Below, piece by piece: positions 6,211-42,487 of a DNA stretch of 64,000 bases; within the stretch, counting starts at the first letter, position 1, and each line of letters begins with the position of its first letter. The translations under genes and the position numbers were made by a program. The stretch spans positions 1-64,000 of IMG/VR virus record IMGVR_UViG_3300045988_129382; one strand, 5' to 3'. Under the pieces are notes generated by a model. The model was not told the DNA's origin and did no database searches. It worked only from the letters and a program-made list of their open reading frames with translations. The DNA is from a virus.

Positions 6211-6444
6211 ATGAAAAAGTTTGATTTTATAAAAGAGATTATTAGGATTTCAAAAGAATTTGTGTGTGGACATGATTTTGATGCACTATATTGTAGTTTA
6301 AAATTAACCTACAGTGTTAATGGTGAGTTTGCTATAAACGATATGCTACGTTTTGTTGATGAGTATCATCAGGATGGTTTTTTAGATTACTTTGAATGGA
6401 AAGAGTTACGTAGAGTTGTATTAGAACGTGATTTCAGTCGCTAA
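6211..6444 (+). CDS. Hypothetical protein. Start moved from the track start to ATG 6211.
   Basis: GAGGT SD lies 5 nt upstream of ATG 6211; the track start 6166 has no SD. Confidence 0.6.
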   Translation: MKKFDFIKEIIRISKEFVCGHDFDALYCSLKLTYSVNGEFAINDMLRFVDEYHQDGFLDYFEWKELRRVVLERDFSR

Positions 6445-6458
6445 GGTGGTAACTTATT

Positions 6459-6692
6459 ATGAATTTAGTTGATGGTAATAAAGTTGTTGTGATTAAAGAT
6501 AGAGGATTTACATTGAAGGCTATTTCAGATATTTATATCTTTGATGATATGTTATATGTTCACGGTTTTAATGGTGATATAGCTAAAATAAAATTAGATA
6601 AGATTTCTGATTTTAGGCTTTTTAAGGATGTAGTTGATGAAGTATTTGCATATCATCAGGCTTTAAATGGACTTGTAGCATGTGGGATGTAA
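6459..6692 (+). CDS. Hypothetical protein, 77 aa
   Basis: AAGGTGG SD upstream. Confidence 0.65.
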   Translation: MNLVDGNKVVVIKDRGFTLKAISDIYIFDDMLYVHGFNGDIAKIKLDKISDFRLFKDVVDEVFAYHQALNGLVACGM

Positions 6693-6889
6693 GTGTTGTG
6701 TATTACTTTATTTTCTTTAAATTAGCACTTGCAATGTTCCTTATGGGTGTTTTATTTGCTTTTCTTAGTTTGTTCTTTCCTTATTTTAGTAAGGGTGAGC
6801 ATATTATGGATGTTTTAGTTGGGTTTTCTTTGACTATTTCCTTATCACTTATTGTTGTGAGTGGTTGGTTGTGGGTTTTTGATATTTGA
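6680..6889 (+). CDS. Small membrane protein with two hydrophobic segments
   Basis: Hydrophobic stretches FIFFKLALAMFLMGVLFAFLSLFF and GFSLTISLSLIVVSGWLWVF. Confidence 0.5.
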   Translation: MWDVSVVYYFIFFKLALAMFLMGVLFAFLSLFFPYFSKGEHIMDVLVGFSLTISLSLIVVSGWLWVFDI

Positions 6890-6902
6890 TGGTGGTGTTA
6901 TA

Positions 6903-7091
6903 ATGGATTATTTCTTTTTCTTTAAAGTTTTTGTTGCATCCTTTGTTATGACTTTTATTTTGGTATTTAGTACGAGTAGCTGTGAACCTTTTTCTAGGAC
7001 TTATCGTGTTTACGATACTTTGTCATCGATTTTCTCTGGTATTGCAGTTATTTCTTTAATTATTGCTTTGATATTGTGGTTGTTTGATTAA
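6903..7091 (+). CDS. Small membrane protein; similar in architecture to 6680-6889
   Basis: ATG 6903 preceded by GGTGGTG; two hydrophobic segments; C-terminus LWLFD compares with WLWVFDI in the neighbour. Confidence 0.55.
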   Translation: MDYFFFFKVFVASFVMTFILVFSTSSCEPFSRTYRVYDTLSSIFSGIAVISLIIALILWLFD

Positions 7092-7123
7092 TTGAATTAA
7101 TTGTTCATGATAAATATAGTTCA

Positions 7124-7312
7124 TTGTATAATATTTTGAGTACCCTTAAAGATTCATTTCTTTGGAGTGTTTGTTATACAGTTTCAGATGGTATTATCTT
7201 GGTAGAGATTAAAGAAGTGTGCTCTGATGACACTACTATTTACATTCAATGTGTTTTAGAGGTTGTTGATATATCATCTAATCTTAAATCATTGTCAAAT
7301 TCAGATGGTTAG
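7124..7312 (+). CDS. Doubtful ORF, 62 aa
   Basis: Non-ATG start, no SD, and it overlaps a TATAAT box at 7127-7132. Confidence 0.25.
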   Translation: MYNILSTLKDSFLWSVCYTVSDGIILVEIKEVCSDDTTIYIQCVLEVVDISSNLKSLSNSDG

Positions 7313-7440
7313 ATGTCTTTTACGCTTTATAATACTACTTGTGTTCCTTTCTTGGTTAATTTTTTAGAAAAAAATTCTACAATCTGATTTTTGACGGATG
7401 TACTAATATATTACCTATTTTTAATTTCTAATTACAAAAC

Positions 7441-7470
7441 TTTACAACTTAATATGTGTAGTGTTATAAT
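7441..7470 (+). promoter_or_regulatory. Sigma-A-type promoter: TTTACA, 18-nt spacer, TATAAT
   Basis: CAAAACTTTACAACTTAATATGTGTAGTGTTATAAT. It is followed at once by a 10-bp hairpin at 7471-7496. Confidence 0.65.
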
Positions 7471-7517
7471 AAGCATGTAGATATTCCTACATGCTTATTT
7501 CTTTGTGAGGTGATATT

Positions 7518-8015
7518 ATGTTAGACTTGTATAGACATGATTTTTTGAGAATTCCTGTGTATTGTGGTGATGCTGTAAAATCACATCTACCTAAAACAGG
7601 TACATTTAAAGTAGATGGTTTTTATTACACTCATACATATAAAGATTCCTTGTTTGAGGAGTTAGTATTAGCTGATTCTGTTTGTTCTGAGCAGATTACT
7701 GAGTTAGAGTTTTATCAAGAAATACCTAAAATTCTTGATATTCGCACTTTTGGTGGTGGAGGTTCTATTGGTATTCAGTTGGATGGTTATCTAGAAAGGT
7801 TAAATGATTTTGTAGGTAAGACTATTCATGTGTATTGGCATAATTACTCTGTTTACTTTACCTTTGATATTTGTAAAGTTAATATTAAATATCGTAAATT
7901 AGATATTGATATTACTAGAGATACTACTGATACTATCCACATTTCATACATCGATGTGGTCTTAAAAGCTATTCGTCTTTTCAATATTGGTATTTATAAA
8001 GTGGTTGAGGGTTGA
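7518..8015 (+). CDS. Hypothetical protein, 165 aa
   Basis: GAGGTGA SD upstream. Confidence 0.7.
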   Translation: MLDLYRHDFLRIPVYCGDAVKSHLPKTGTFKVDGFYYTHTYKDSLFEELVLADSVCSEQITELEFYQEIPKILDIRTFGGGGSIGIQLDGYLERLNDFVGKTIHVYWHNYSVYFTFDICKVNIKYRKLDIDITRDTTDTIHISYIDVVLKAIRLFNIGIYKVVEG

Positions 8016-8679: not shown

Positions 8680-10926
8680 ATGAAGTCTTTATTAATAATG
8701 AGAGGTTGTCCTGGAAGTGGGAAGACAACTCTTTTAAAAGATTTAGGATTAGATATTTATTCTTTAAGTAGTGATAGATTACGATTGATGTACAGTTCAC
8801 CTGTTTTAAATGAAGAGGGTAATTATACGATTAGTCAAGATTGCAATAGTGATGTATTTGATACATTGTATAAAATGTTAGAATATCGTATGTCTAATGG
8901 TGAGTTTACTATTATTGATGCAACGCATTGCTCCTCGACTAAAACTGTACATAAACAGATTCAGGAGTATCGTAGATTAGCTAAACGATACAACTATAGA
9001 ATCTATCAGTATGATATGACTACTGATATACTTAGTATAGCTAGACAGAATGAGTATCGTAGGGGTACATATTCTTTTGTGCCACATCATATTGTTGATA
9101 AGATGCGTAGGGTTATGGAAGATACTCCTAAGTTGCATAGAGATATCTCTAAGTTAGACTCTATTGAAGATTTTATTTCTTCTTATAATACAGACTATTT
9201 ATGTGATGCTAATGTGTATAGTAATGTTAAAGTGGTTGGTGACGTTCATTCATGTAATACTGTTCTCAAAAATGCTTTATCTGATTTTGATACTAATACA
9301 TTATATGTGTTTGTTGGGGATTACTTTGACAGGGGTATTGAGCATTACGATACATTAAAGACTATTCAAGATTTATCTAAGCGTAAAAATGTTATATTGT
9401 TAGAGGGTAACCATGAATCACATTGGATTCGTTATTCACATAGTGAGAGTGGTGATGATTTAGGTTACAAGCGTTTCAGAGAAACAACTTTAAAAGATTG
9501 GCTACTACATTATGATAATGAATCAGATTTAAAGAAAGAGTTACGTATATTATATCGTAAACTACATTCTTGTTATTTCTTTAAGTGTGGTAATATTAGG
9601 TATATGGTTACACATGCTGGTTTGACAAAGTTCCCTGAAAATGCGTTATTGTTATCATCTACTCAATGTATTAAGGGTGTAGGTGGTTATGATTTTGAGG
9701 TTTCACTAGAGTATACTAAACAACAGCGTAGTGGTACTGAAGTTCAAGTTTTTGGTCATAGGGGTGTATCTTCTTCTAAAGGTTTCAGTTATTCTTTAGA
9801 GGGTAAAGTTGAATTTGGTGGTCATCTTAAAGTTCTTAATATTGATAAAAGTGGTCATGAAGTTGTTGAATACAAAAACTATGTATACAATAAGAATTAT
9901 CTAGATGAAGAATTTAAATTTCAACAAGAATTTGGTAAGGTTGTACTAAATACTGATTCCATTGAAGTTAATGTTATAGCTAATTCTAAGTTAGTTAGGG
10001 TTCGTAATTGTGGTGATATGGTTAGTCTTAACTTTACTGAGAAGGCTTTTAGACATAATTTGTGGGATAGTGTTACAATTAAGGCACGTGGGTTATTTGT
10101 TGATAAAATTACAGGTGATGTTAAAGCACGTTCTTATGATAAATTCTTTAATTTAGGTCAGAGAAAAGATTCTAATGAAGAGTTAGATAAACTAGTTTAC
10201 CCTGTCAGGGTTGCTAAGAAAGAGAATGGTTCTTTAGGTATCATTTCTTGGGATAGGCAAAAATGTGAATATATTTTCGCTAGCAAGAATTCTACAATGA
10301 CTGAGCATGCTGGTTATGTTAAAGAAAACTTTGAAATGGTTGACTTCAATATTCAGTATGCATTACGTACAATTTTAATGAAGTATAATTGTTCTGCTGT
10401 ATTTGAGATGATTCACCCTAAAGATGTTCATATCATTAATTATAATAAATCTCACAAACTTTTCTTGTTAGACTTTGTACCTAATAAGTTACATTTAGAT
10501 AATGGTATTCATATTGATTATGAATTTTCTGAGATGTGTAGAAAAGAGTTTAGTAAGATTTATGAAGAAAACCCTATGCTTGCATTTGATGATGTATTTA
10601 AGGTTGTGTGGTCAACAACTGTTTCTGATAGAGATGCTTTAAATGTGTATCTTGAAAAAGCTAAAACATGTGATTTTGAGGGTTATGTATTTACAGATTC
10701 TAGAGGTTATATGACTAAGATTAAGTCTGATTCTTATTTAGAGTGGAAATATTGTAGGACATTATTAGGTCATTATGTTAGCAATAGTGATATAAATACT
10801 AATTCATTAAATGATTTTGAAAAGAGTTTCTACAGTTTCTTGCGTACTCATTTTGTTACTGATTTGAGAGATAAGAATATTTTAGAAGTTAGAGATATGT
10901 ATAATCAGTGGGTGGCTAATAAATGA
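8680..10926 (+). CDS. Pnkp-like RNA-repair fusion with three domains: polynucleotide kinase, metallophosphatase and RNA ligase/adenylyltransferase
   Basis: N-terminal P-loop GCPGSGKTT. Central calcineurin-type motifs GDVHSC, GDYFDRG, GNHE and THAG. C-terminal nucleotidyltransferase motif I KENGS. Confidence 0.8.
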   Translation: MKSLLIMRGCPGSGKTTLLKDLGLDIYSLSSDRLRLMYSSPVLNEEGNYTISQDCNSDVFDTLYKMLEYRMSNGEFTIIDATHCSSTKTVHKQIQEYRRLAKRYNYRIYQYDMTTDILSIARQNEYRRGTYSFVPHHIVDKMRRVMEDTPKLHRDISKLDSIEDFISSYNTDYLCDANVYSNVKVVGDVHSCNTVLKNALSDFDTNTLYVFVGDYFDRGIEHYDTLKTIQDLSKRKNVILLEGNHESHWIRYSHSESGDDLGYKRFRETTLKDWLLHYDNESDLKKELRILYRKLHSCYFFKCGNIRYMVTHAGLTKFPENALLLSSTQCIKGVGGYDFEVSLEYTKQQRSGTEVQVFGHRGVSSSKGFSYSLEGKVEFGGHLKVLNIDKSGHEVVEYKNYVYNKNYLDEEFKFQQEFGKVVLNTDSIEVNVIANSKLVRVRNCGDMVSLNFTEKAFRHNLWDSVTIKARGLFVDKITGDVKARSYDKFFNLGQRKDSNEELDKLVYPVRVAKKENGSLGIISWDRQKCEYIFASKNSTMTEHAGYVKENFEMVDFNIQYALRTILMKYNCSAVFEMIHPKDVHIINYNKSHKLFLLDFVPNKLHLDNGIHIDYEFSEMCRKEFSKIYEENPMLAFDDVFKVVWSTTVSDRDALNVYLEKAKTCDFEGYVFTDSRGYMTKIKSDSYLEWKYCRTLLGHYVSNSDINTNSLNDFEKSFYSFLRTHFVTDLRDKNILEVRDMYNQWVANK

Positions 10927-11300
10927 TGGGTAAGTATAATATTAATGACAAAGTTCCTTTAAATTCTGAAGGACAAAATGCTAATATAAAAGCTAATATC
11001 TTGTCGGATGAAGAAATGCGTGAGTTGGGTTTTACGGATTATGCAAAAGATAGATGGTATTTCTGTAGAAGAGTTGGTGGAAAGGATAGTGATATCAGTT
11101 TTAATATCACTATCTTCAAGAAAACTAAGGACATTCGGATAGATGTTCTAGATGAGATGTTTTTACAGCCTTATGACTTTCAAATGTATATCGGTACAGT
11201 TGCTGTAGCTAATCGTGTGTATGATGATGTTCAAAATTACATGAAATTCTTCATGGACAATGGTGTTATTTATGGGTATACTTTAGGTGATTACATTTAG
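10923..11300 (+). CDS. Hypothetical protein, 125 aa
   Basis: ATGA overlap with the upstream stop. Confidence 0.7.
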   Translation: MMGKYNINDKVPLNSEGQNANIKANILSDEEMRELGFTDYAKDRWYFCRRVGGKDSDISFNITIFKKTKDIRIDVLDEMFLQPYDFQMYIGTVAVANRVYDDVQNYMKFFMDNGVIYGYTLGDYI

Positions 11301-11312
11301 ATTGAGGTTTAT

Positions 11313-11744
11313 ATGTATAAAAATTTCTATAAAATATATGACATACTAACTACATTGTCTAATTATTTGGACTATGCTCATCCTTGTATTAAAGAGTTAT
11401 TTACTTTGGGTAATAATTCTGTTAAGTATGATAAGTATAGTGGAAAAACGACTATTGTTATTGGTGATGATACATATTTGATTACTGATATATCATTATT
11501 ACACTATATATCATATGATTATTATGTAGCTAGTTATGATAATATATTTGATGATTCATTAGATTTCTATCATACTTTCTTATCTGTACGTGGTGTTTCA
11601 TTTAAAGATATGGCTTCAAACCTTGATAGTATTGTTAGCTTTAGAAGTTGCTTTGGTTATAAAACAGATGATTCAGATATTGAGTTTCTTAAAGAATATT
11701 TTTTACTCATTCATAATAAATTATGTGAGTTAGATAGTTTGTAG
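11313..11744 (+). CDS. Hypothetical protein, 143 aa
   Basis: GAGGT SD upstream. Confidence 0.7.
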   Translation: MYKNFYKIYDILTTLSNYLDYAHPCIKELFTLGNNSVKYDKYSGKTTIVIGDDTYLITDISLLHYISYDYYVASYDNIFDDSLDFYHTFLSVRGVSFKDMASNLDSIVSFRSCFGYKTDDSDIEFLKEYFLLIHNKLCELDSL

Positions 11745-11750
11745 GGTTAT

Positions 11751-12293
11751 ATGGAAATATATTTTACAAGTGATTTACACTTAGGTCATGGTAATATAAT
11801 ACGTTTTTGTAATAGACCATTTAGTAGTGTTGAAGAGATGAACGATAGAATTATACGGAATTATAATTCTATCGTTCATAAAAATGATTTAGTATATATT
11901 TTAGGCGATTTAACCTATAAGATTTCTGTTAAAGAGTCTAATAATTTAATACAACAATTAAAAGGTCGTAAGGTTCTGATTCGTGGTAATCATGACTTAA
12001 AGTATGATAGTAGTTTGTTTGAAGATATTCTTGATTATAAAGAGTTCAATCAAGATAAGGTTAAGTATGTGTTAATGCATTATCCTTTAATGAGTTGGAA
12101 TGGTAGTTATAGGAATAAAAGTATTCATTTACATGGTCATATTCATGCTCAGTATGTATATAACTTAAAAAATAGACATGATTTTGTTCTTAGGTATGAT
12201 GTTGGTGTGGATGCTAATAATTACTTTCCTGTATCTTTGACTTCCATAAGGGATTTCTTTAAAGTTCAATTAGAATATAGTGAGGGTGATTAG
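11751..12293 (+). CDS. Metallophosphoesterase, calcineurin-like fold
   Basis: Motifs SDLHLGH, ILGDLTY, RGNHD and HGHIH in the canonical order. Confidence 0.8.
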   Translation: MEIYFTSDLHLGHGNIIRFCNRPFSSVEEMNDRIIRNYNSIVHKNDLVYILGDLTYKISVKESNNLIQQLKGRKVLIRGNHDLKYDSSLFEDILDYKEFNQDKVKYVLMHYPLMSWNGSYRNKSIHLHGHIHAQYVYNLKNRHDFVLRYDVGVDANNYFPVSLTSIRDFFKVQLEYSEGD

Positions 12294-12713
12294 ATGTCTT
12301 TTGATGATATTAAATTTAGTAGTGATTATTCTGCTGAGGATATTAATAGAATAACTAAAGACTTTGTAGATATGGTTAAGTATCTTAGGAATAATGAAAC
12401 ATATTATAGCTCTATTGTTAATGAGTGCGATAAGGCTTTGGGTGATTTATATCATTATTGTGAGTTACATTATCCTACAACACGGAGTGGTAAAACTAAA
12501 GTTGTAAGTCTTATTCGTGATATTTCAACTACTAGACGTAAAGCTAAGGATATTTTAGAACTAGTTGAGCCTATTCTAAAACTAGATACGTCATATACTA
12601 GTGAGTTGGGAAGGGTATCTAATTCTATTAATAAGACATATAATAAATTATATATCAACGAGCGTAGATATACACCTAGAGTTTTAGAAGATTTGTTTAA
12701 GGGTGGTGATTAG
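12294..12713 (+). CDS. Hypothetical protein, 139 aa
   Basis: GAGGGTGA SD upstream. Confidence 0.7.
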   Translation: MSFDDIKFSSDYSAEDINRITKDFVDMVKYLRNNETYYSSIVNECDKALGDLYHYCELHYPTTRSGKTKVVSLIRDISTTRRKAKDILELVEPILKLDTSYTSELGRVSNSINKTYNKLYINERRYTPRVLEDLFKGGD

Positions 12714-12899
12714 GTGTCAGATGCATCTAAGCTTAGAGATACGATAGATGGCAGAATAGATAAGTATATCTATTCTTATGTTGGTGCATATTTCAATGAT
12801 GTTGATAATAACACATTACAGGATGATTTGTATAAAGAGTTGGTTTTAGACTTGAAAAGTATTATTGAGGAAGAATGTAATAGGATAGGTTTAAAGTAA
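12714..12899 (+). CDS. Hypothetical protein, 61 aa, GTG start
   Basis: GGTGGTGA SD upstream of the GTG. Confidence 0.55.
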   Translation: MSDASKLRDTIDGRIDKYIYSYVGAYFNDVDNNTLQDDLYKELVLDLKSIIEEECNRIGLK

Positions 12900-12914
12900 A
12901 GTGTTGTTTTTATT

Positions 12915-12932
12915 TATAATCTGTGGTACAAT
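12915..12932 (+). promoter_or_regulatory. Candidate -10 elements: TATAAT at 12915-12920 and an extended -10 TGgTACAAT at 12924-12932
   Basis: Read directly; no good -35 box. Confidence 0.4.
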
Positions 12933-12939
12933 TTATTTA

Positions 12940-13163
12940 CAGGGTTTGATAGTTTAATGAGTCTGAGTGATTATAAAAATTCTCTCTCAATCACTCTCAC
13001 ATAAGAAATAATCTCCGTAATTTCAATGGAAGTTTTTCTTCTATAGTTACTCAGACTCATTAAGCTATCAAATATCTGTAGTTAATGTTAAGCCACGTTG
13101 TTGCATAAATTTCTCCTTAAAAGCGACTCATATATTTCATCATGATTATATGAGTCGCTTTTT
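12940..13163 (+). ncRNA. Candidate structured RNA or attenuator leader of about 225 nt, lying directly upstream of the SNF2 gene
   Basis: A 26-bp stem pairs 12945-12970 with 13047-13072 (24 Watson-Crick pairs plus 2 G-U pairs that work only on the + strand). It encloses a 76-nt loop and ends in a 14-bp intrinsic terminator. Confidence 0.5.
13121..13163 (+). terminator. Intrinsic terminator
   Basis: Stem AAGCGACTCATATA / TATATGAGTCGCTT (14 bp) followed by TTTTT. Confidence 0.8.
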
Positions 13164-13173
13164 ATTTAGTTAA

Positions 13174-15066
13174 GTGGGGTATGGTTTGAGCGATTATAAA
13201 TTAGAGGATAAGTACATTTCTTTTAATGGTATTACATTGGGTAGTGACCAAATAGAATGTGCTGAATATATGTTAGCTAGGAAAGGTTGTATATTAGGTG
13301 GTCAGTGTGGTTTAGGTAAAACATTAATTACATCTGTAGCTAACAAAGTACTATTAGATAAATATAATACAGTTGTGTCCATTATAGTTTGTCCTGTTAA
13401 GGCACTTAAAGCCTTTAGAAGAGAACTATTTGAAAAGCTACAGATTAAAGAGGATGAGGTTGGAATTATATCTGCCGATTACACATGGTATAACTTAGAT
13501 ACTAATCGGTTTTTTGTGTGTACAGATACTCAATTAGAGAAGTTAGATAGGATTACAGCTGAGTTAAAATCAAGAAATGTTCCTATGATTTTAAATGTGG
13601 ACGAGGCACATAAACTGCAAGATAAGAAGAGTAAGTATTCTCAGATTATGTCTAGTATACGTTCTAGGTGTTCTATTGTGTGGCTTATGACTGCTACACC
13701 TATTTTAAACTCTTTGGACTCTTTGTATAACATTGTTAACTTTTCTTCACCTGGTTTTCTTGGTAAGAAAGACTCTTTTGATAATAATTTTACTTTGTGG
13801 AATTTACGAGACCAATATATTAAGCGTGGTGGTAAGGCTACTAAAATTAAAGTCAAGGAAGTGTATGGGTATAAAAACCTAGATATTCTTAGGGAAAAGC
13901 TTAATGATATCATGATTGTACGTGGTAAAGAATACAATCTTAAATTCACGGCTTTAGAGTGCGATTTAACAGACAAAGATTATGAAATATATAAGAGGGT
14001 ATCAAGTGGGATTTTAAATTTTGATGATGATGCTAGGAATTTCTCACGTAGGATGCATGATTTACAACGATTTGTAGATAGAGTATATACTGATGAGACA
14101 ATGGAGGATTTGGTATCTAATTATTGTGATACTGAGTATTCCACTAAAGAGGAGTTACTGCTTAATTCATTAGAGGGTGCATTTAGCAATGGTTATAGCG
14201 TTATCATTTATGCAGAATATAAGGAGACAATTTCTAGACTAGAATCTATTCTAAAGAAAAATAAGAAAAAGCTAAATTTGGGTAAGATACATAAAGTAAC
14301 AGGTTCTATTAATATTAAGGTTAGGGAAGCTGTTGAAGAGAATATTGGTTCTAGAGATGTGGTATTGATTACATCTGCTGGTACTGAGTCAGTAAACCTA
14401 CAGAAATGTAACACAATTATTTTCTATGACATTTCTTTCTCAACTAAGAATATGATTCAAGCAGTTGGTAGGGTTTGTAGGCGAGATTCTAAGTTTGATA
14501 CTCAGTATGCTATTCTTTTGGTAACAAAACGTACTATTGATGAGTACAAATATCGTATGTTCAATAATAACTTAAATATGGTTAAGGGTGCTGTTGGTGC
14601 TGGTAAGGATATTCCGTTGTCTGAGGATATGCTGTTATCAGATGCTAATGATTTACGTGTTCTTAAAGATGAGTTGCTTTGGGCATATAAAGGTTCTAAG
14701 AAGAGGAATAGAAAAGCTAAGACTACTGATTATAAAGTTATTGAAAAGCAACTAGTTCCTTGTACATATGTCGATGCTAGTGGTGAGATTGCTAGTTATC
14801 GTTTTTTAGTTGAGCCTTGTATTTCTGATATTGTTGGTTTTGATTTAGATTCATGTACTAAGTTGTATTCTTATATCTCAGATAAAGAAATTCCTTTTGC
14901 TGTTATTAAGACAAAGTATCATCAGTACTTTACTACAGAAGAGGGAAAGAAGATGCTTTTATCTCTTAAAGATGGGGCATTAAATAAAGGTAGAATTTTA
15001 CTTATAGGGAATAACATAGAGATTTCTAAGATGATACAAAAAGAGGTTTTGAAGCTTTGTAAATAA
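13174..15066 (+). CDS. SNF2/RAD54-family helicase. The start is either GTG 13174 or TTG 13186.
   Basis: Motif I GLGKT, motif II DEAH, motif III TATP, and motifs V/VI SAGTESVNLQ and QAVGRVCR. Confidence 0.85.
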   Translation: MGYGLSDYKLEDKYISFNGITLGSDQIECAEYMLARKGCILGGQCGLGKTLITSVANKVLLDKYNTVVSIIVCPVKALKAFRRELFEKLQIKEDEVGIISADYTWYNLDTNRFFVCTDTQLEKLDRITAELKSRNVPMILNVDEAHKLQDKKSKYSQIMSSIRSRCSIVWLMTATPILNSLDSLYNIVNFSSPGFLGKKDSFDNNFTLWNLRDQYIKRGGKATKIKVKEVYGYKNLDILREKLNDIMIVRGKEYNLKFTALECDLTDKDYEIYKRVSSGILNFDDDARNFSRRMHDLQRFVDRVYTDETMEDLVSNYCDTEYSTKEELLLNSLEGAFSNGYSVIIYAEYKETISRLESILKKNKKKLNLGKIHKVTGSINIKVREAVEENIGSRDVVLITSAGTESVNLQKCNTIIFYDISFSTKNMIQAVGRVCRRDSKFDTQYAILLVTKRTIDEYKYRMFNNNLNMVKGAVGAGKDIPLSEDMLLSDANDLRVLKDELLWAYKGSKKRNRKAKTTDYKVIEKQLVPCTYVDASGEIASYRFLVEPCISDIVGFDLDSCTKLYSYISDKEIPFAVIKTKYHQYFTTEEGKKMLLSLKDGALNKGRILLIGNNIEISKMIQKEVLKLCK

Positions 15067-15111
15067 TCTTTAAACTGTTAATCACCTATTAAATACTTAT
15101 GTTAAATATAT

Positions 15112-15146
15112 AATGTGCATATCATTTGGTATGCACATTTTTTCTT
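15112..15146 (+). terminator. Intrinsic terminator after the SNF2 gene
   Basis: Stem AATGTGCATA / TATGCACATT followed by a T-run. Confidence 0.7.
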
Positions 15147-15171
15147 TATTTTATTCAGTAAAGGGGTATCA

Positions 15172-17316
15172 ATGTCTGAGGTAAAATCTAGTGATGTATT
15201 TGAGTTAATTAAAGGTAGCATTAGTGAAGATAGTAAGATGTCTTTTGATGTTTCCAATATTGATTTAAGTACTTCAAGCACAGGTGTGGTTGTTATTAAT
15301 TCAAAAGATGACGTATATTTTGCTATAGCTAGGAAGTCAGTTCAAGAATTTAAGGTTGTAGTTGAAAATCAAGAAATTACATCTGATAAGGTTTTGAGTA
15401 GCAATATTCAGTTCATTAGAAATTTTACTAAGGATAAAGCTAGTTATCGTCATGGTGATGATGTATTAGTTAATTTTACAGTTAAGAATACATCTAAAGA
15501 AGATTCACCGATGGTGGTGTCTGTTAATTTGTATAAAATTAATGAGAGAGTTGCTACTGTATATTCTGATTCTAAATTATATCTTAGGGTTAATGAGACT
15601 AAAGATTATTCAGTAACAGTTCCAAATGACATTTTAGAAAGTAATAGTGGTTATTTACTTTCTATTGTTGTTACAGATACGAATAATAACATTGATGTTA
15701 TCAATGAGGGTTTTTCTGTAGAGGATGATTGGACTAAATTCCCTAGATATGGTGTCATTGGTGGCTCAGGTGATGATAATAATTCTATTTTATTGAAGAA
15801 TAAAGATAGATATTTTGATGCATTAGGTGTTATGAGTAATATGAATATCAACTCATATTTCTTCTATGATGCATATAAATCACCTCAAAATCCTTTTCCT
15901 ATCGATAAAGAGCAGTTTAGTCAGGATTGGAATACTTGGAGTCATAGTGTTGTTGATGTAGATATGGTTAAGGGTTTAACTGATTACGTGCATGGTAAGA
16001 ATTCCGTTGCTATGTTGTATAATATGTGTTTTGCACGTTCAGTTGATGAGGGAGAAGTTGTACCTGCTTGGGAATATGCGTACAATCATGATACGTATGG
16101 CTTAAATAAAAAAGGTACACCATATATCAATTATATTGATGGTAAGCCTTTTCAATATTATTATCACCCTATGAGTACGCAGTGGAGAGAGCATATCTCT
16201 AATGTTATGATTGAAGCTATGGAAAATGGTGGTTTTGATGGTTGGCAAGGTGATACTATTGGCGACCGTACTATTAATGCTTATTATGATGCTGATAGTG
16301 ATGCTCATTATATGAGTGATTATTATGGCGATTTTATGGCAGATATGAAAAAGCGTATGCCTAATAAATATTTAACAATTAATGATGTTAATGGTGAACA
16401 TTTAGATAAGTTGTTAGATTCCAATCAAGATGTTATCTATAATGAAATATGGCCGTTTGGTCAATCTGCTTTGGTTATTGATGGTCAATATCGTTCACAG
16501 ACTGAGTATGGTGATTTGAAAGCACGTGTAGATGATGTTAGACGTAAATTAGGTAAATCTCTTATTGTTGGTGCATATATGAATGGGCCAGCTACTGAGT
16601 GGGTTGATGGTAAACGTGTTGCTAAGAATGGGTCTGGTCAGGATTCTATTAATGGTGGTACATACAATCTCCCAGCAGTGTTGTTAACAACAGCTACAAT
16701 TTCTGCCGCTGGTGGTTATCACATGAGTTCTGCCGTATTGGCTAATAGTATGAATAAGGGAGGGTTGGATATTGGTATTTTAGAGAAAGATTACTATCCA
16801 ACTCAGAGCCTACGTACTACAGCTGAGATAACACGTAAGGTGTATGATTATAATCAGTTTGTTACTGCGTATGAAAACATACTACGTGGTGATGGTTTAG
16901 AAGATGATACTACAGAATTAGAAGTTATTAATAGTTTTGGTTTCAAACAAAATTGGGATAGGTATGGTACTAGAGGTTATCAAGTATGGACATGGTCTAA
17001 ACAGGGTAATGGATTTAGAACTGTACAGTTAATCAATTTGTCTGATGTTGTATCTAATTGGAAGAACAAAGAGGGTACATCCATTAATAAACAGCCAACG
17101 TATATGAAAGATTTCATTGTTAAGTATGTTGTAGGTAAGGATAAAGACTTAGCTGAAAGATTATCTAATAGTGTATATGTAACCTCCCCTGATGATTGGT
17201 CTAAATCTGCTATGGTTAAATGTCATGTTGATGTTATCAATGAGGATGGTAATTATGTTTTGAATATTCATGTTTCTGATTTAGATATTTGGGATATGGT
17301 TTATATTAAAGAGTAG
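15172..17316 (+). CDS. Glycoside hydrolase, GH66 (dextranase / cycloisomaltooligosaccharide glucanotransferase)-like. Start moved to ATG 15172.
   Basis: AAAGGGG SD lies before ATG 15172. Layout is an N-terminal beta-sandwich-like region, then DDWTKFPRYGVIGG, INSYFFYDAY and GFDGWQGDTIGD, then a C-terminal beta region (VQLINLSD). The family call comes from remembered GH66 motifs only. Confidence 0.55.
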   Translation: MSEVKSSDVFELIKGSISEDSKMSFDVSNIDLSTSSTGVVVINSKDDVYFAIARKSVQEFKVVVENQEITSDKVLSSNIQFIRNFTKDKASYRHGDDVLVNFTVKNTSKEDSPMVVSVNLYKINERVATVYSDSKLYLRVNETKDYSVTVPNDILESNSGYLLSIVVTDTNNNIDVINEGFSVEDDWTKFPRYGVIGGSGDDNNSILLKNKDRYFDALGVMSNMNINSYFFYDAYKSPQNPFPIDKEQFSQDWNTWSHSVVDVDMVKGLTDYVHGKNSVAMLYNMCFARSVDEGEVVPAWEYAYNHDTYGLNKKGTPYINYIDGKPFQYYYHPMSTQWREHISNVMIEAMENGGFDGWQGDTIGDRTINAYYDADSDAHYMSDYYGDFMADMKKRMPNKYLTINDVNGEHLDKLLDSNQDVIYNEIWPFGQSALVIDGQYRSQTEYGDLKARVDDVRRKLGKSLIVGAYMNGPATEWVDGKRVAKNGSGQDSINGGTYNLPAVLLTTATISAAGGYHMSSAVLANSMNKGGLDIGILEKDYYPTQSLRTTAEITRKVYDYNQFVTAYENILRGDGLEDDTTELEVINSFGFKQNWDRYGTRGYQVWTWSKQGNGFRTVQLINLSDVVSNWKNKEGTSINKQPTYMKDFIVKYVVGKDKDLAERLSNSVYVTSPDDWSKSAMVKCHVDVINEDGNYVLNIHVSDLDIWDMVYIKE

Positions 17317-17340
17317 TTATTGAATAGAATATAGTGTATG

Positions 17341-17379
17341 ATAAGGGTATAGATTTTCTCTATACCCTTATTTTATTTT
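17341..17379 (+). terminator. Intrinsic terminator
   Basis: 13-bp stem ATAAGGGTATAGA / TCTATACCCTTAT followed by a T-run. Confidence 0.8.
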
Positions 17380-29114: not shown

Positions 29115-29147
29115 ATGAGTTCTAGGTATACTTTTGTATATTTATAA
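29115..29147 (+). CDS. Upstream mini-ORF encoding MSSRYTFVYL
   Basis: Strong SD AAAGGAGATAAAA. An identical peptide is encoded at 42376-42408, and the only difference between the two is a synonymous AGG/AGA change. Confidence 0.5.
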   Translation: MSSRYTFVYL

Positions 29148-29228
29148 CAGAATTTGAAGTATTTCCTTTGGGATATACACATAAGTATTCATTAAGTTGT
29201 TTGTTTTATTCATAAAGGAGATAAAAAA
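29115..29228 (+). promoter_or_regulatory. Copy 1 of a duplicated leader of about 113 nt, consisting of an upstream ORF, a hairpin and the SD of the downstream gene
   Basis: About 90 percent identical to 42376-42487. Hairpin arms are at 29128-29141 and 29173-29188. Confidence 0.6.
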
Positions 29229-41585: not shown

Positions 41586-42386
41586 ATGGGACAATTAGAT
41601 AAATTAACTAAAAGCTACGAGCAACATATTATTAAATGTAGAGTAGAGGGTGATAGGGCAATTCTTGCCGTATTATCAGATGTGCATCAAGGTTTAAATG
41701 ATAGAAAGTATTTACAAGATACTGTTAAATTTCTATTATCATTAGGTGATAGGTGTAAAGTGATTCTTGGTGGTGATTGTACCAATACAACAACTAAGAA
41801 CTCAAAAGGTAATGTACTTGAAGAGTGGTGTAGTGGTAGTGAGCAGATTTACACTTTAGTAGATGATATTAGACCTTTATATGAAAGTGGACAGCTTATT
41901 GGTATTGTAGAGGGTAATCACCCTAAACGTGCATATAATGATGCGTATATTACTATTGAAGAGATGATAGCTAGTCTGTTGGGGGATAAATCATTGTATA
42001 AGGGTTGTATGGGTATTGTTTACTTTAATGTAAACGATAATCTATATGTACATCAAATTTTGCATAAACATCGTTCTACTGAAGGTGCATATGATTTCTT
42101 TAATGCTGATGTAAATTGGTTTGAGCATAAACATAAGCCTATGACTAGAGCAAGGGTTAAGATTGAACACAATAAGTTTGTTAAAAAACCAGTAGCACGT
42201 CAAGTGTGGGATATTTATCAATCTAGTTTTCAAGTATTCCCTGATTATGCTAAGAGTGCTGGTTATAAACCTAGTGTGAGTGGATATTACTTGTGTGAAA
42301 TGAGTGGTAATAAGCATAATCGAATTGCTACACCGTATTTTGATAGTGATTTTAGGAATTTAATTAAGAATGGATATGAGTTCTAG
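41586..42386 (+). CDS. Metallophosphoesterase, second copy in the window
   Basis: Motifs LSDVHQG, GGDCTN and EGNHP. Confidence 0.65.
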   Translation: MGQLDKLTKSYEQHIIKCRVEGDRAILAVLSDVHQGLNDRKYLQDTVKFLLSLGDRCKVILGGDCTNTTTKNSKGNVLEEWCSGSEQIYTLVDDIRPLYESGQLIGIVEGNHPKRAYNDAYITIEEMIASLLGDKSLYKGCMGIVYFNVNDNLYVHQILHKHRSTEGAYDFFNADVNWFEHKHKPMTRARVKIEHNKFVKKPVARQVWDIYQSSFQVFPDYAKSAGYKPSVSGYYLCEMSGNKHNRIATPYFDSDFRNLIKNGYEF

Positions 42387-42487
42387 ATATACTTTTGTAT
42401 ATTTATAACAGAATTTAATGTATTTTCCCTGGGATATACAAATAAGTATTCGTTAAGGAGTTTGTTTTATTCATAAAAGGAGATATT
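42376..42487 (+). promoter_or_regulatory. Copy 2 of the duplicated leader; includes the same mini-ORF MSSRYTFVYL at 42376-42408
   Basis: About 90 percent identical to 29115-29228. The mini-ORF start overlaps the end of gene 41586-42386. Confidence 0.6.

Follow-up and report, generated by a model that had tools for sequence, protein, structure and literature searches.

The window analysed here is a 64,000-nt stretch of DNA from a metagenomic virus (positions 1 to 64,000 of IMG/VR record IMGVR_UViG_3300045988_129382), and the element described lies in the gap immediately upstream of its SNF2 helicase gene. This gap starts at 12900, directly after a 61-amino-acid (aa) open reading frame (ORF) that ends at 12899 and bounds it on the SNF2-distal side, and runs to 13173 if SNF2 is begun at a GTG codon or to 13185 if it is begun at its true start (see below). 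There is little doubt that the gap encodes a real, conserved, structured noncoding RNA on the + strand. The comparison set consists of 60 copies (25 distinct sequences) in two clades (1 and 2), plus a third clade (clade 3; L043-L045). In the window the features of the locus are as follows.

12904-12932, + strand: sigma-70-type promoter with a weak -35 element (TTGTTT, 12904-12909), a 17-nt spacer and an extended -10 element (TGgTACAAT, 12924-12932)
12939-12975, + strand: 5′ arm of the stem P1, from minimum-free-energy folds and covariation; it holds the non-conserved mini-ORF start at 12957
12957-13004, + strand: mini-ORF MSLSDYKNSLSITLT, present in the window and not a gene
12971-13008, + strand: protospacer, with a 38/38 match to a spacer (L107, 4483-4520; ODXW01000256.1) in a Veillonella-type CRISPR (clustered regularly interspaced short palindromic repeat) array
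12980-13000, + strand: tract 1, an unpaired CU-rich 21-mer, UUCUCUCUCAAUCACUCUCAC, near-invariant in clades 1 and 2
13003-13040, + strand: P2, an inner hairpin within the P1 loop that carries AAUCUCCG (predicted fold)
13042-13079, + strand: 3′ arm of P1, from minimum-free-energy folds and covariation
13080-13103, + strand: variable linker, with indels of 1-7 nt within clade 1 and a small hairpin (P3) in clades 2 and 3
13104-13122, + strand: tract 2, unpaired CAUAAAUUUCUCCUUAAAA, near-invariant in clades 1 and 2
13119-13167, + strand: intrinsic terminator with a 16-bp stem, a 12-nt loop region and a UUUUUAUUU tail
13176-13188, + strand: SNF2 Shine-Dalgarno sequence (GGGGU) and start codon (TTG 13186), from the alignment of relatives and homologue lengths
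13186-15066, + strand: SNF2 coding sequence (Pfam SNF2-rel_dom and Helicase_C)

The initial annotation of this region, made from the window alone, described a 26-bp stem that pairs 12945-12970 with 13047-13072. This stem is present and is longer than was claimed; P1 has 37 pairs in the window (RNAfold, 12939-12975 with 13042-13079), 31 of which are conserved, and the stem measures 31-37 bp in the first two clades but 19 bp in clade 3. The + strand of the gap folds at -91.1 kcal/mol, compared with -48.7 +/- 4.2 kcal/mol for dinucleotide shuffles (z = -10.1; 0 of 200 as good), and the - strand folds at -73.0 kcal/mol, which is 18 kcal/mol worse. Per nucleotide, the fold energy is -0.32 kcal/mol in the SNF2 gap versus about -0.2 kcal/mol in the other intergenic gaps of the window.

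The relatives show that the pairing itself is maintained. In an RNAalifold comparison of 17 distinct sequences, 98.8% of the P1 cells (one pair in one sequence) are paired and 12 pairs are altered on both sides; when the 3′ partners are moved by 1-3 columns as a control, 32-45% of the cells pair and there are 0-1 two-sided pair changes. Over all 25 distinct sequences, the P1 cells include 775 Watson-Crick, 59 G-U and 12 A-C combinations. All 12 A-C cells lie at a single apical position, where clade 2 has G-C, and the other single-sided changes are G-U or U-G on the + strand. Neutral transitions should make G-U and A-C combinations at similar rates, so the excess of the former points to selection on + strand pairing. 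In addition, three sequences (L001, L004, and L020) have a matched one-base deletion on each P1 arm, and these deletions together with the two-sided changes are the compensatory differences that the initial annotation had proposed to look for. The two non-Watson-Crick positions in the window's own stem, U12953-G13064 and G12969-U13048, are wobbles on the + strand only, as originally noted, and these one-strand wobbles, with A-C confined to one apical position, bear out the earlier view that the stem is an RNA structure and not a DNA palindrome.

Within clade 1 the gap sequences share about 92% identity, and between clades 1 and 2 about 69%, although the SNF2 proteins of these clades are 92-98% identical; in clade 3 SNF2 is 83-85% identical and the gap cannot be aligned, but its layout is alike. 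Thus, across three clades whose SNF2 proteins are 83-98% identical to that of the window, the same series is found of extended -10 promoter, P1, CU-rich tract, inner hairpin, second tract, terminator and SNF2 ribosome-binding site. A hairpin is predicted at the place of P2 in all three clades, with unrelated sequences. The clade 3 loop opens with ...GCACUCUCAC... and its inner hairpin carries UUCCUCCCUU; after this come a small hairpin, AUUUCUCUCCUAUAAAA, the terminator, GAGGU and an ATG start codon. Indels of 1, 2, 5, and 7 nt occur in the element, and no ORF is conserved on either strand (the - strand was read by hand). In relatives whose SNF2 is 50-64% identical the element was not found upstream of SNF2, and one of them (64% identical SNF2) has only a terminator directly before that gene; within the sequences seen, the family is therefore confined to one lineage. 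A distant relative (L049; SNF2 51% identical) carries a TnpB/Cas12f-like OrfB_IS605 gene (6412-7665) just downstream of SNF2.

The most conserved blocks of the element are its two unpaired tracts and not its stems, with flanks only about 69% identical between clades. Both tracts are predicted to be unpaired with a probability of at least 0.9 in all clades, tract 2 in the terminated RNA. The only variation of tract 1 in clades 1 and 2 is a single A-to-G change at 12990 (L001/L138), and CACUCUCAC is retained in clade 3; its segment AAUCACUCUC resembles the 16S rRNA 3′ end, AUCACCUCC. This tract is the joint most C-rich, G-poor 25-mer of the window, in a genome that otherwise avoids C, and there is one copy per genome. 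Neither tract has a second copy or a full-length complementary target within the window, and a scan of the genome collection with the tract 1 21-mer found nothing. Tract 2 differs by one U/A between clades 1 and 2, has a C-to-U change in L011, and is retained in clade 3 with a 2-nt insertion. By computation it is the reverse complement of UUUUAAGGAGAAAUUUAUG, that is, of a Shine-Dalgarno sequence, a 6-nt spacer and AUG; its complement, which may also be written AAGGAGAAAUUUAUG or TTTTAAGGAGAAATTTATG, is exactly the textbook arrangement of Shine-Dalgarno, spacer and start codon. Among the matches listed from viral contigs, TTTTAAGGAGAAATTTATG occurs verbatim as the ribosome-binding site of many unrelated phages, so that a scan of these contigs with the exact complement of tract 2 returned a common ribosome-binding site and, among those matches, no specific partner. 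The three CU-rich tracts resembling anti-Shine-Dalgarno sequences that were reported from the window are all present in the sequence.

Predicted transcription of the element and the start of SNF2

Both -10 elements first read in this region, TATAAT (12915-12920) and TGgTACAAT (12924-12932), are there, and from the extended one transcription is predicted to start near 12939. The extended -10 sits 7 nt before P1 and is kept in three clades as TGGTAYAWT, within a promoter motif, T(G/A)TGGTA(C/T)A(A/T/G)T, that is common to all of them; in clade 3 the promoter consists of a consensus TTTACA, 17 nt and then TGTGGTATATT. A TGGTATAAT-type -10 is found again at other promoters of the window (repeat families D5-D8). 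Promoter-like sequences of the form AAAACTTTACA-N17-TGGTATAAT, often with a doubled CTTTACA, follow terminators in many intergenic regions (at 2918, 7404, 17531, 20107, 21583, 35782, 43628, and 45269), and this set probably represents phage promoters read by the host polymerase.

The terminator stem (13119-13162) has 12 G/C-containing and four A-U pairs, with a U-tract that reaches 13167, and at -21 kcal/mol it is the strongest terminator-like hairpin of the window. Its position and structure are kept in three clades, and its stem sequences differ in clades 2 and 3. A terminator had been reported at this place with a 14-bp stem ending 11 nt before SNF2; it is present, but the stem is 16 bp and the end lies about 20 nt from the true SNF2 start codon. 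No promoter is found in between, as had been argued, and SNF2 therefore depends on read-through. This order of promoter, structure and terminator is unique among the gaps of the window, the others having a terminator, then a promoter, then a Shine-Dalgarno sequence. There is also no terminator between the upstream operon (8680-12899) and the RNA gene. Given a promoter conserved 7 nt before the stem and a terminator in three clades, a discrete species of about 225 nt, one of the two readings first offered, is the best reading of the unit.

The other features first proposed for the unit fared less well. An SNF2 start at GTG 13174 is rejected by the alignment of relatives and by the length of the homologues in the databases, most of which are 626 aa; the start codon is TTG 13186 in the window, whereas clade 2 has GTG here and clade 3 has ATG, both preceded at 6-8 nt by GGAGG/GAGGT. 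The peptide LSDYK, which the mini-ORF was said to share with SNF2 codons 5-9, is therefore encoded by codons 1-5. The match does exist in the window (13/15 nt), but it is near chance, since 12% of shuffles contain a second 15-mer with two or fewer mismatches; clade 2 lacks the match, and in clade 3 the P1 left arm and the SNF2 start agree at only 14/19 positions (hand-counted). In clades 2 and 3 the right arm of P1 complements the SNF2 start region only as much as background sequence does. An origin of the unit from a duplicated SNF2 5′ end is accordingly not upheld, loss of the echo in relatives being an outcome that the initial annotation had itself named as counting against this part of the proposal. 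The mini-ORF itself likewise exists in the window, but its ATG is ATA in clade 2 and its frame is broken by the one-base deletion in L001, L004, and L020, which leaves "MS*"; the ATG is moreover buried in P1 and has no Shine-Dalgarno sequence. Leader-peptide attenuation, which calls for a conserved short ORF with a ribosome-binding site, was rejected on these grounds. The annotation is thus corrected in two respects, by moving the SNF2 start and by removing the mini-ORF.

Nor does the element look like a classical attenuation leader, the other reading first offered, as no upstream segment conserved in the three clades was found that could pair with the terminator's 5′ arm before the 3′ arm is made. 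The alternative pairing GAGUGAUU/AAUCACUC that had been pointed out is present in part as described, with AATCACTC at 12989-12996, but its partner GAGTGATT lies at 12965-12972, one base from the position first given, and clade 3 uses a different part of the motif. The Rfam search that had been recommended gave no family match at gathering score in the whole window, and with the element of the three clades at E <= 10 or <= 1 it gave nothing at threshold. No riboswitch or T-box aptamer or leader family was found, weak SAM and purine matches (E 0.3-8) being on the wrong strand; there is likewise no Rfam match to 6S RNA, whose long helix is broken by a large central bubble, and P1 is continuous, with a terminal multiloop as its open region.

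The upstream operon opens with a 748-aa polynucleotide kinase/phosphatase/RNA ligase fusion (a Pnkp-like RNA repair enzyme) and also holds a second metallophosphoesterase (8680-12293). Directly after SNF2 (15067-17372) lies a 714-aa glycoside hydrolase family 66 (GH66; dextranase-like) gene (Pfam, 361 bits), with terminators on either side (15112-15139 and 17340-17372) and without its own promoter. SNF2 and the GH66 gene are the only genes of the window that stand directly behind a terminator without a promoter. The latter is missing at the corresponding position in clade 3 (L043) and so looks like an acquired accessory gene. Elsewhere, at 7469-7517, a terminator-like hairpin (AAGCATGTAG...CTACATGCTT and a U-rich run) comes immediately after a promoter and ahead of the Shine-Dalgarno sequence of gene 7518, which makes this a second, much shorter hairpin between a promoter and a gene start.

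The phage and its probable host

With 30% G+C, the window shows a strong G-over-C skew, and virtually all of its genes lie on the + strand. A DNA search of the GenBank phages with the window gave no match, and a protein search gave distant SNF2 relatives at about 25% identity and nothing nearer; a tRNA and tmRNA scan found none. The related metagenomic contigs reach 213 kb (the family range is about 200-213 kb), and this is therefore a jumbo phage.

The host is very probably Veillonella, a common oral and gut bacterium. A metagenome scan with tract 1 brought up, alongside further phage copies, a CRISPR array (L107) with the 38-nt spacer that is identical to the protospacer listed above, which takes in tract 1 in the loop of the RNA. 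The array repeat, GTTTCAATACCGTAAACGGTAAGTACTGTTGCAAC, was found only in genomes of Veillonella and Veillonellaceae, including one metagenome-assembled genome of Dialister (same family), and it is the identical spacer together with this restricted repeat that points to the host. The spacer match thereby ties this metagenomic jumbo phage family to Veillonella. Genes cas1 and cas2 adjoin the array; as to its CRISPR type, a Csx20-like match did not reach threshold, and nothing could be learned from the sequences that flank other arrays. The array has its degenerate repeats at one end, and its repeat, when reverse-complemented, finishes in ATTGAAAC; this orientation suggests that the CRISPR RNA from this spacer is complementary to the + strand RNA; this fits transcription of the + strand, although a single spacer is weak evidence. 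In the relative with a 64% identical SNF2 (L047), the gene upstream of SNF2 (145-903) encodes a YadA-anchor (trimeric autotransporter) domain, consistent with a host that, like Veillonella, has an outer membrane. Little is known about small RNAs in virulent and jumbo phages, and to our knowledge there is no description of one from a Veillonella phage.

Likeness to known RNAs and possible function

The nearest likeness of the element is to the C/U-rich small RNAs of Firmicutes. Its 3′ module (hairpin, single-stranded C/U tract and terminator) scores 28.7 bits against RsaD (Infernal; E 0.002), which is below the gathering score of 50; the csRNA model (Cia-dependent small RNAs; RF02379) scores 23.9 bits against clade 3, far below its gathering score of 57, and the LhrC and RsaE models gave nothing with the element at E <= 10. 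LhrC is reported to have several unpaired C/U-rich sites that pair with Shine-Dalgarno regions (PMC4132741, PMC5880928). Like RsaD, RsaE and RNAIII of Staphylococcus aureus and LhrC1-5 of Listeria, the phage RNA has its own promoter and intrinsic terminator and two or three unpaired C/U-rich sites, in a loop and before the terminator, and like the RsaD/LhrC "UCCC-motif" RNAs it belongs to a Firmicute host (here one of the Negativicutes). It differs from that group in being encoded by a phage, in having CUCC/CUCUC motifs and not UCCC, and in having a 31-37 bp 5′ stem that those RNAs lack; moreover, the RsaD alignment covers only the 3′ third of the phage RNA, and LhrC is about half as long. The csRNAs of streptococci have two stem-loops around an unpaired stretch that is complementary to a Shine-Dalgarno sequence and AUG, and tract 2 (CAU-N6-CUCC) has exactly this design; the phage RNA, however, has no CiaR-type promoter, and its P1/tract 1 domain is extra to the csRNAs.

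Two kinds of regulatory leader are also comparable. In the lambda PR′-6S RNA-tR′ unit and Listeria SreA/SreB, a short terminated transcript precedes read-through genes and the product can act in trans. The phage element shares with them the order of promoter, short noncoding transcript, strong terminator and read-through-dependent genes, but it has no aptamer or qut-like element, no Rfam match and no conserved terminator/antiterminator alternative. With the c4 and CI immunity RNAs of phages P1/P7 and P4, respectively, which cover a ribosome-binding site further down their own transcript, it shares an upstream RNA that is complementary to a downstream start site in one transcription unit; in this case, however, there is no c4 Rfam match, the phage is apparently a lytic jumbo phage and the complementarity is short and generic. 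The design of the element is thus like that of RsaD, LhrC and the csRNAs while its scores are below threshold, which suggests an RNA that works similarly and lies outside those families. The best reading, judging from sequence, is a small RNA of phage origin, new to Rfam, that belongs with the C/U-rich anti-Shine-Dalgarno RNAs. As such it is a well-defined candidate, with clear boundaries, a covarying structure and two near-invariant single-stranded tracts.

By analogy with those RNAs, the ~228-nt transcript would regulate translation by pairing with ribosome-binding sites, a mechanism to which we give about an even chance. Host RNA polymerase would start near 12939 at the extended -10 promoter, and most transcripts would stop at the intrinsic terminator, at about 13163-13167, to give an RNA of ~228 nt in which P1 (31-37 bp) would enclose a loop that presents the 21-nt tract 1 single-stranded beside a small hairpin. 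The tracts would pair with phage or Veillonella mRNAs at purine-rich ribosome-binding sites and so block the initiation of translation, as Firmicute C/U-rich small RNAs do. Transcripts that escape the terminator would be the only visible source of SNF2 mRNA, and in this read-through RNA tract 2 would, by prediction, fold across the foot of the terminator onto the SNF2 Shine-Dalgarno sequence and start codon, which would keep SNF2 translation low. The element would then have a dual role, as an abundant terminated small RNA and as a repressive 5′ leader for the small fraction that reads through. If broad translation control of this kind is true, it would give a large phage an RNA route to shut-off or to the timing of expression.

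Plausible trans targets of the tracts can be named from the sequence. The best duplex of tract 1 in the window is with the ribosome-binding site of gene 24993, which encodes a 131-aa putative lipoprotein (-27.2 kcal/mol); this site is kept in clade 1 with varied bulges. The ribosome-binding site of gene 12294 can form 12 bp with tract 1 in clades 1 and 2. In cis, pairing of tract 2 with the Shine-Dalgarno sequence and start codon of SNF2 has a predicted P of about 0.35-0.98 in most of the clade 1 and 2 sequences tested.

Several observations weigh against pairing with ribosome-binding sites as the function of the RNA. Six of 300 shuffles give a duplex as good as that with gene 24993, a significance of only about p = 0.02, and in clade 2 that pairing is weak (-20.5 kcal/mol) or the gene is missing, despite an identical tract 1; in clade 3 neither it nor the pairing with gene 12294 holds. 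Such target predictions are weak because a CU-rich tract will pair with whatever ribosome-binding site is rich in purines. Between tract 2 and SNF2 the pairing register differs from clade 1 to clade 2, the pairing is weak in clade 3 (P 0.35), and in L004 the tract lacks a stable partner. The promoter and the terminator are recognised by their match to consensus. Trans-acting small RNAs do not usually contain a perfect duplex of 31-37 bp, and as duplexes of this type are substrates of RNase III, the active species may be shorter than 228 nt; finally, the near-invariance of 21 nt exceeds what a seed typically needs. A stronger form of the proposal, which seems quite unlikely, is that the RNA is a phage mimic of the ribosome's mRNA-recognition surface, in which the AAUCACUCUC segment like the 16S 3′ end and the complement of Shine-Dalgarno, spacer and AUG would be made abundantly and would occlude strong ribosome-binding sites genome-wide. 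If true, it would amount to an RNA-based shut-off of host (or early-gene) translation, with SNF2 expression tied to escape from the element.

The main rival, which we hold to be possible though on balance rather improbable, is that the element acts purely in cis, as a leader through which transcription of SNF2 and the downstream GH66 gene is gated by factor-dependent antitermination. Polymerase would halt at the terminator unless rendered resistant to it by a phage or host factor, which either the structured RNA (nut/put-like) or the promoter-proximal region (lambda Q / 6S-RNA-like) would recruit, and the short RNA would be a by-product. A promoter, a leader of about 190 nt, a strong terminator and a promoterless gene do reproduce the lambda PR′-tR′ order, the two genes it would control are alone in the window in their position directly behind terminators, the relative with a 64% identical SNF2 also has a terminator directly before that gene, and the tract 2 core CUCCUUA (UUUCUCCUUAAAA) is loosely like boxA (UGCUCUUUA; 7/9 positions). 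Yet that same relative reads through its terminator without such an RNA, which makes the RNA dispensable for read-through in the lineage; the three clades have no conserved antiterminator pairing, no antiterminator protein was identified (no search was aimed at one), and the exact anti-ribosome-binding-site sequences of the most conserved parts are left unexplained. It is also conceivable, though we consider it a minor prospect, that P1 is mainly an RNase III site for processing or stability, separating the transcript of the RNA-repair operon from SNF2 mRNA in the manner of the T7 intergenic hairpins, with the tracts secondary. P1, nearly perfect over its 31-37 bp (19 bp in clade 3), is long enough for that enzyme, which needs about 20 bp of duplex, and transcripts of the upstream operon, which has no terminator after it, would enter the element; such a site accounts neither for a dedicated promoter in three clades nor for near-invariance of the unpaired tracts rather than of the stem sequence. 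Cleavage of P1 by RNase III as a maturation step is a different matter: it is likely, by what such duplexes generally undergo, and would be compatible both with pairing to ribosome-binding sites and with antitermination.

A decoy that titrates a pyrimidine-binding protein or RNA (a KH-domain protein, a cold-shock protein or a host small RNA) would make sense of a near-invariant 21-nt tract that is longer than the usual seed, of several CU-rich sites on one stable scaffold, and of the lack of a convincing conserved mRNA target in the parts of the phage genome seen. It is nevertheless unlikely indeed, as no candidate partner was identified and the exact anti-Shine-Dalgarno and anti-AUG sequence of tract 2 points to mRNA starts. 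We find it very hard to see in the inverted repeat a DNA-level element such as a replication origin, a cruciform or a protein-binding palindrome; it does lie beside a replication-type gene, and G-T wobbles could be tolerated in a hairpin of single-stranded + strand DNA, but the wobbles are on one strand only, a promoter and a terminator bracket the structure exactly, the conserved parts are the unpaired tracts, and neither iterons nor an AT-rich unwinding block was found. Least credible of all is that the unit attenuates through a leader peptide, or is left over from a duplication of the SNF2 5′ end, with translation of MSLSDYKNSLSITLT controlling the stem and the terminator: the ORF and its 13/15-nt echo of SNF2 are indeed in the window, but against them stand the loss of the ATG in clade 2, the MS* frameshift in three clade 1 genomes, the position of the ATG within P1 without a Shine-Dalgarno sequence, and an echo that is absent in clade 2, loose in clade 3 and matched by chance at the frequency given above.

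Other repeats in the window

A 102-nt direct repeat (29115-29216 and 42376-42477; 90% identical) occurs in two intergenic regions, and each copy ends in a strong Shine-Dalgarno sequence before a gene start (29229 and 42488, respectively); the two copies may serve as a common 5′ leader or as a regulatory region. The window opens (1-70) with five tandem copies of the 14-mer GAGTTAATTGATTA, which could be a genome end or an origin-type repeat.

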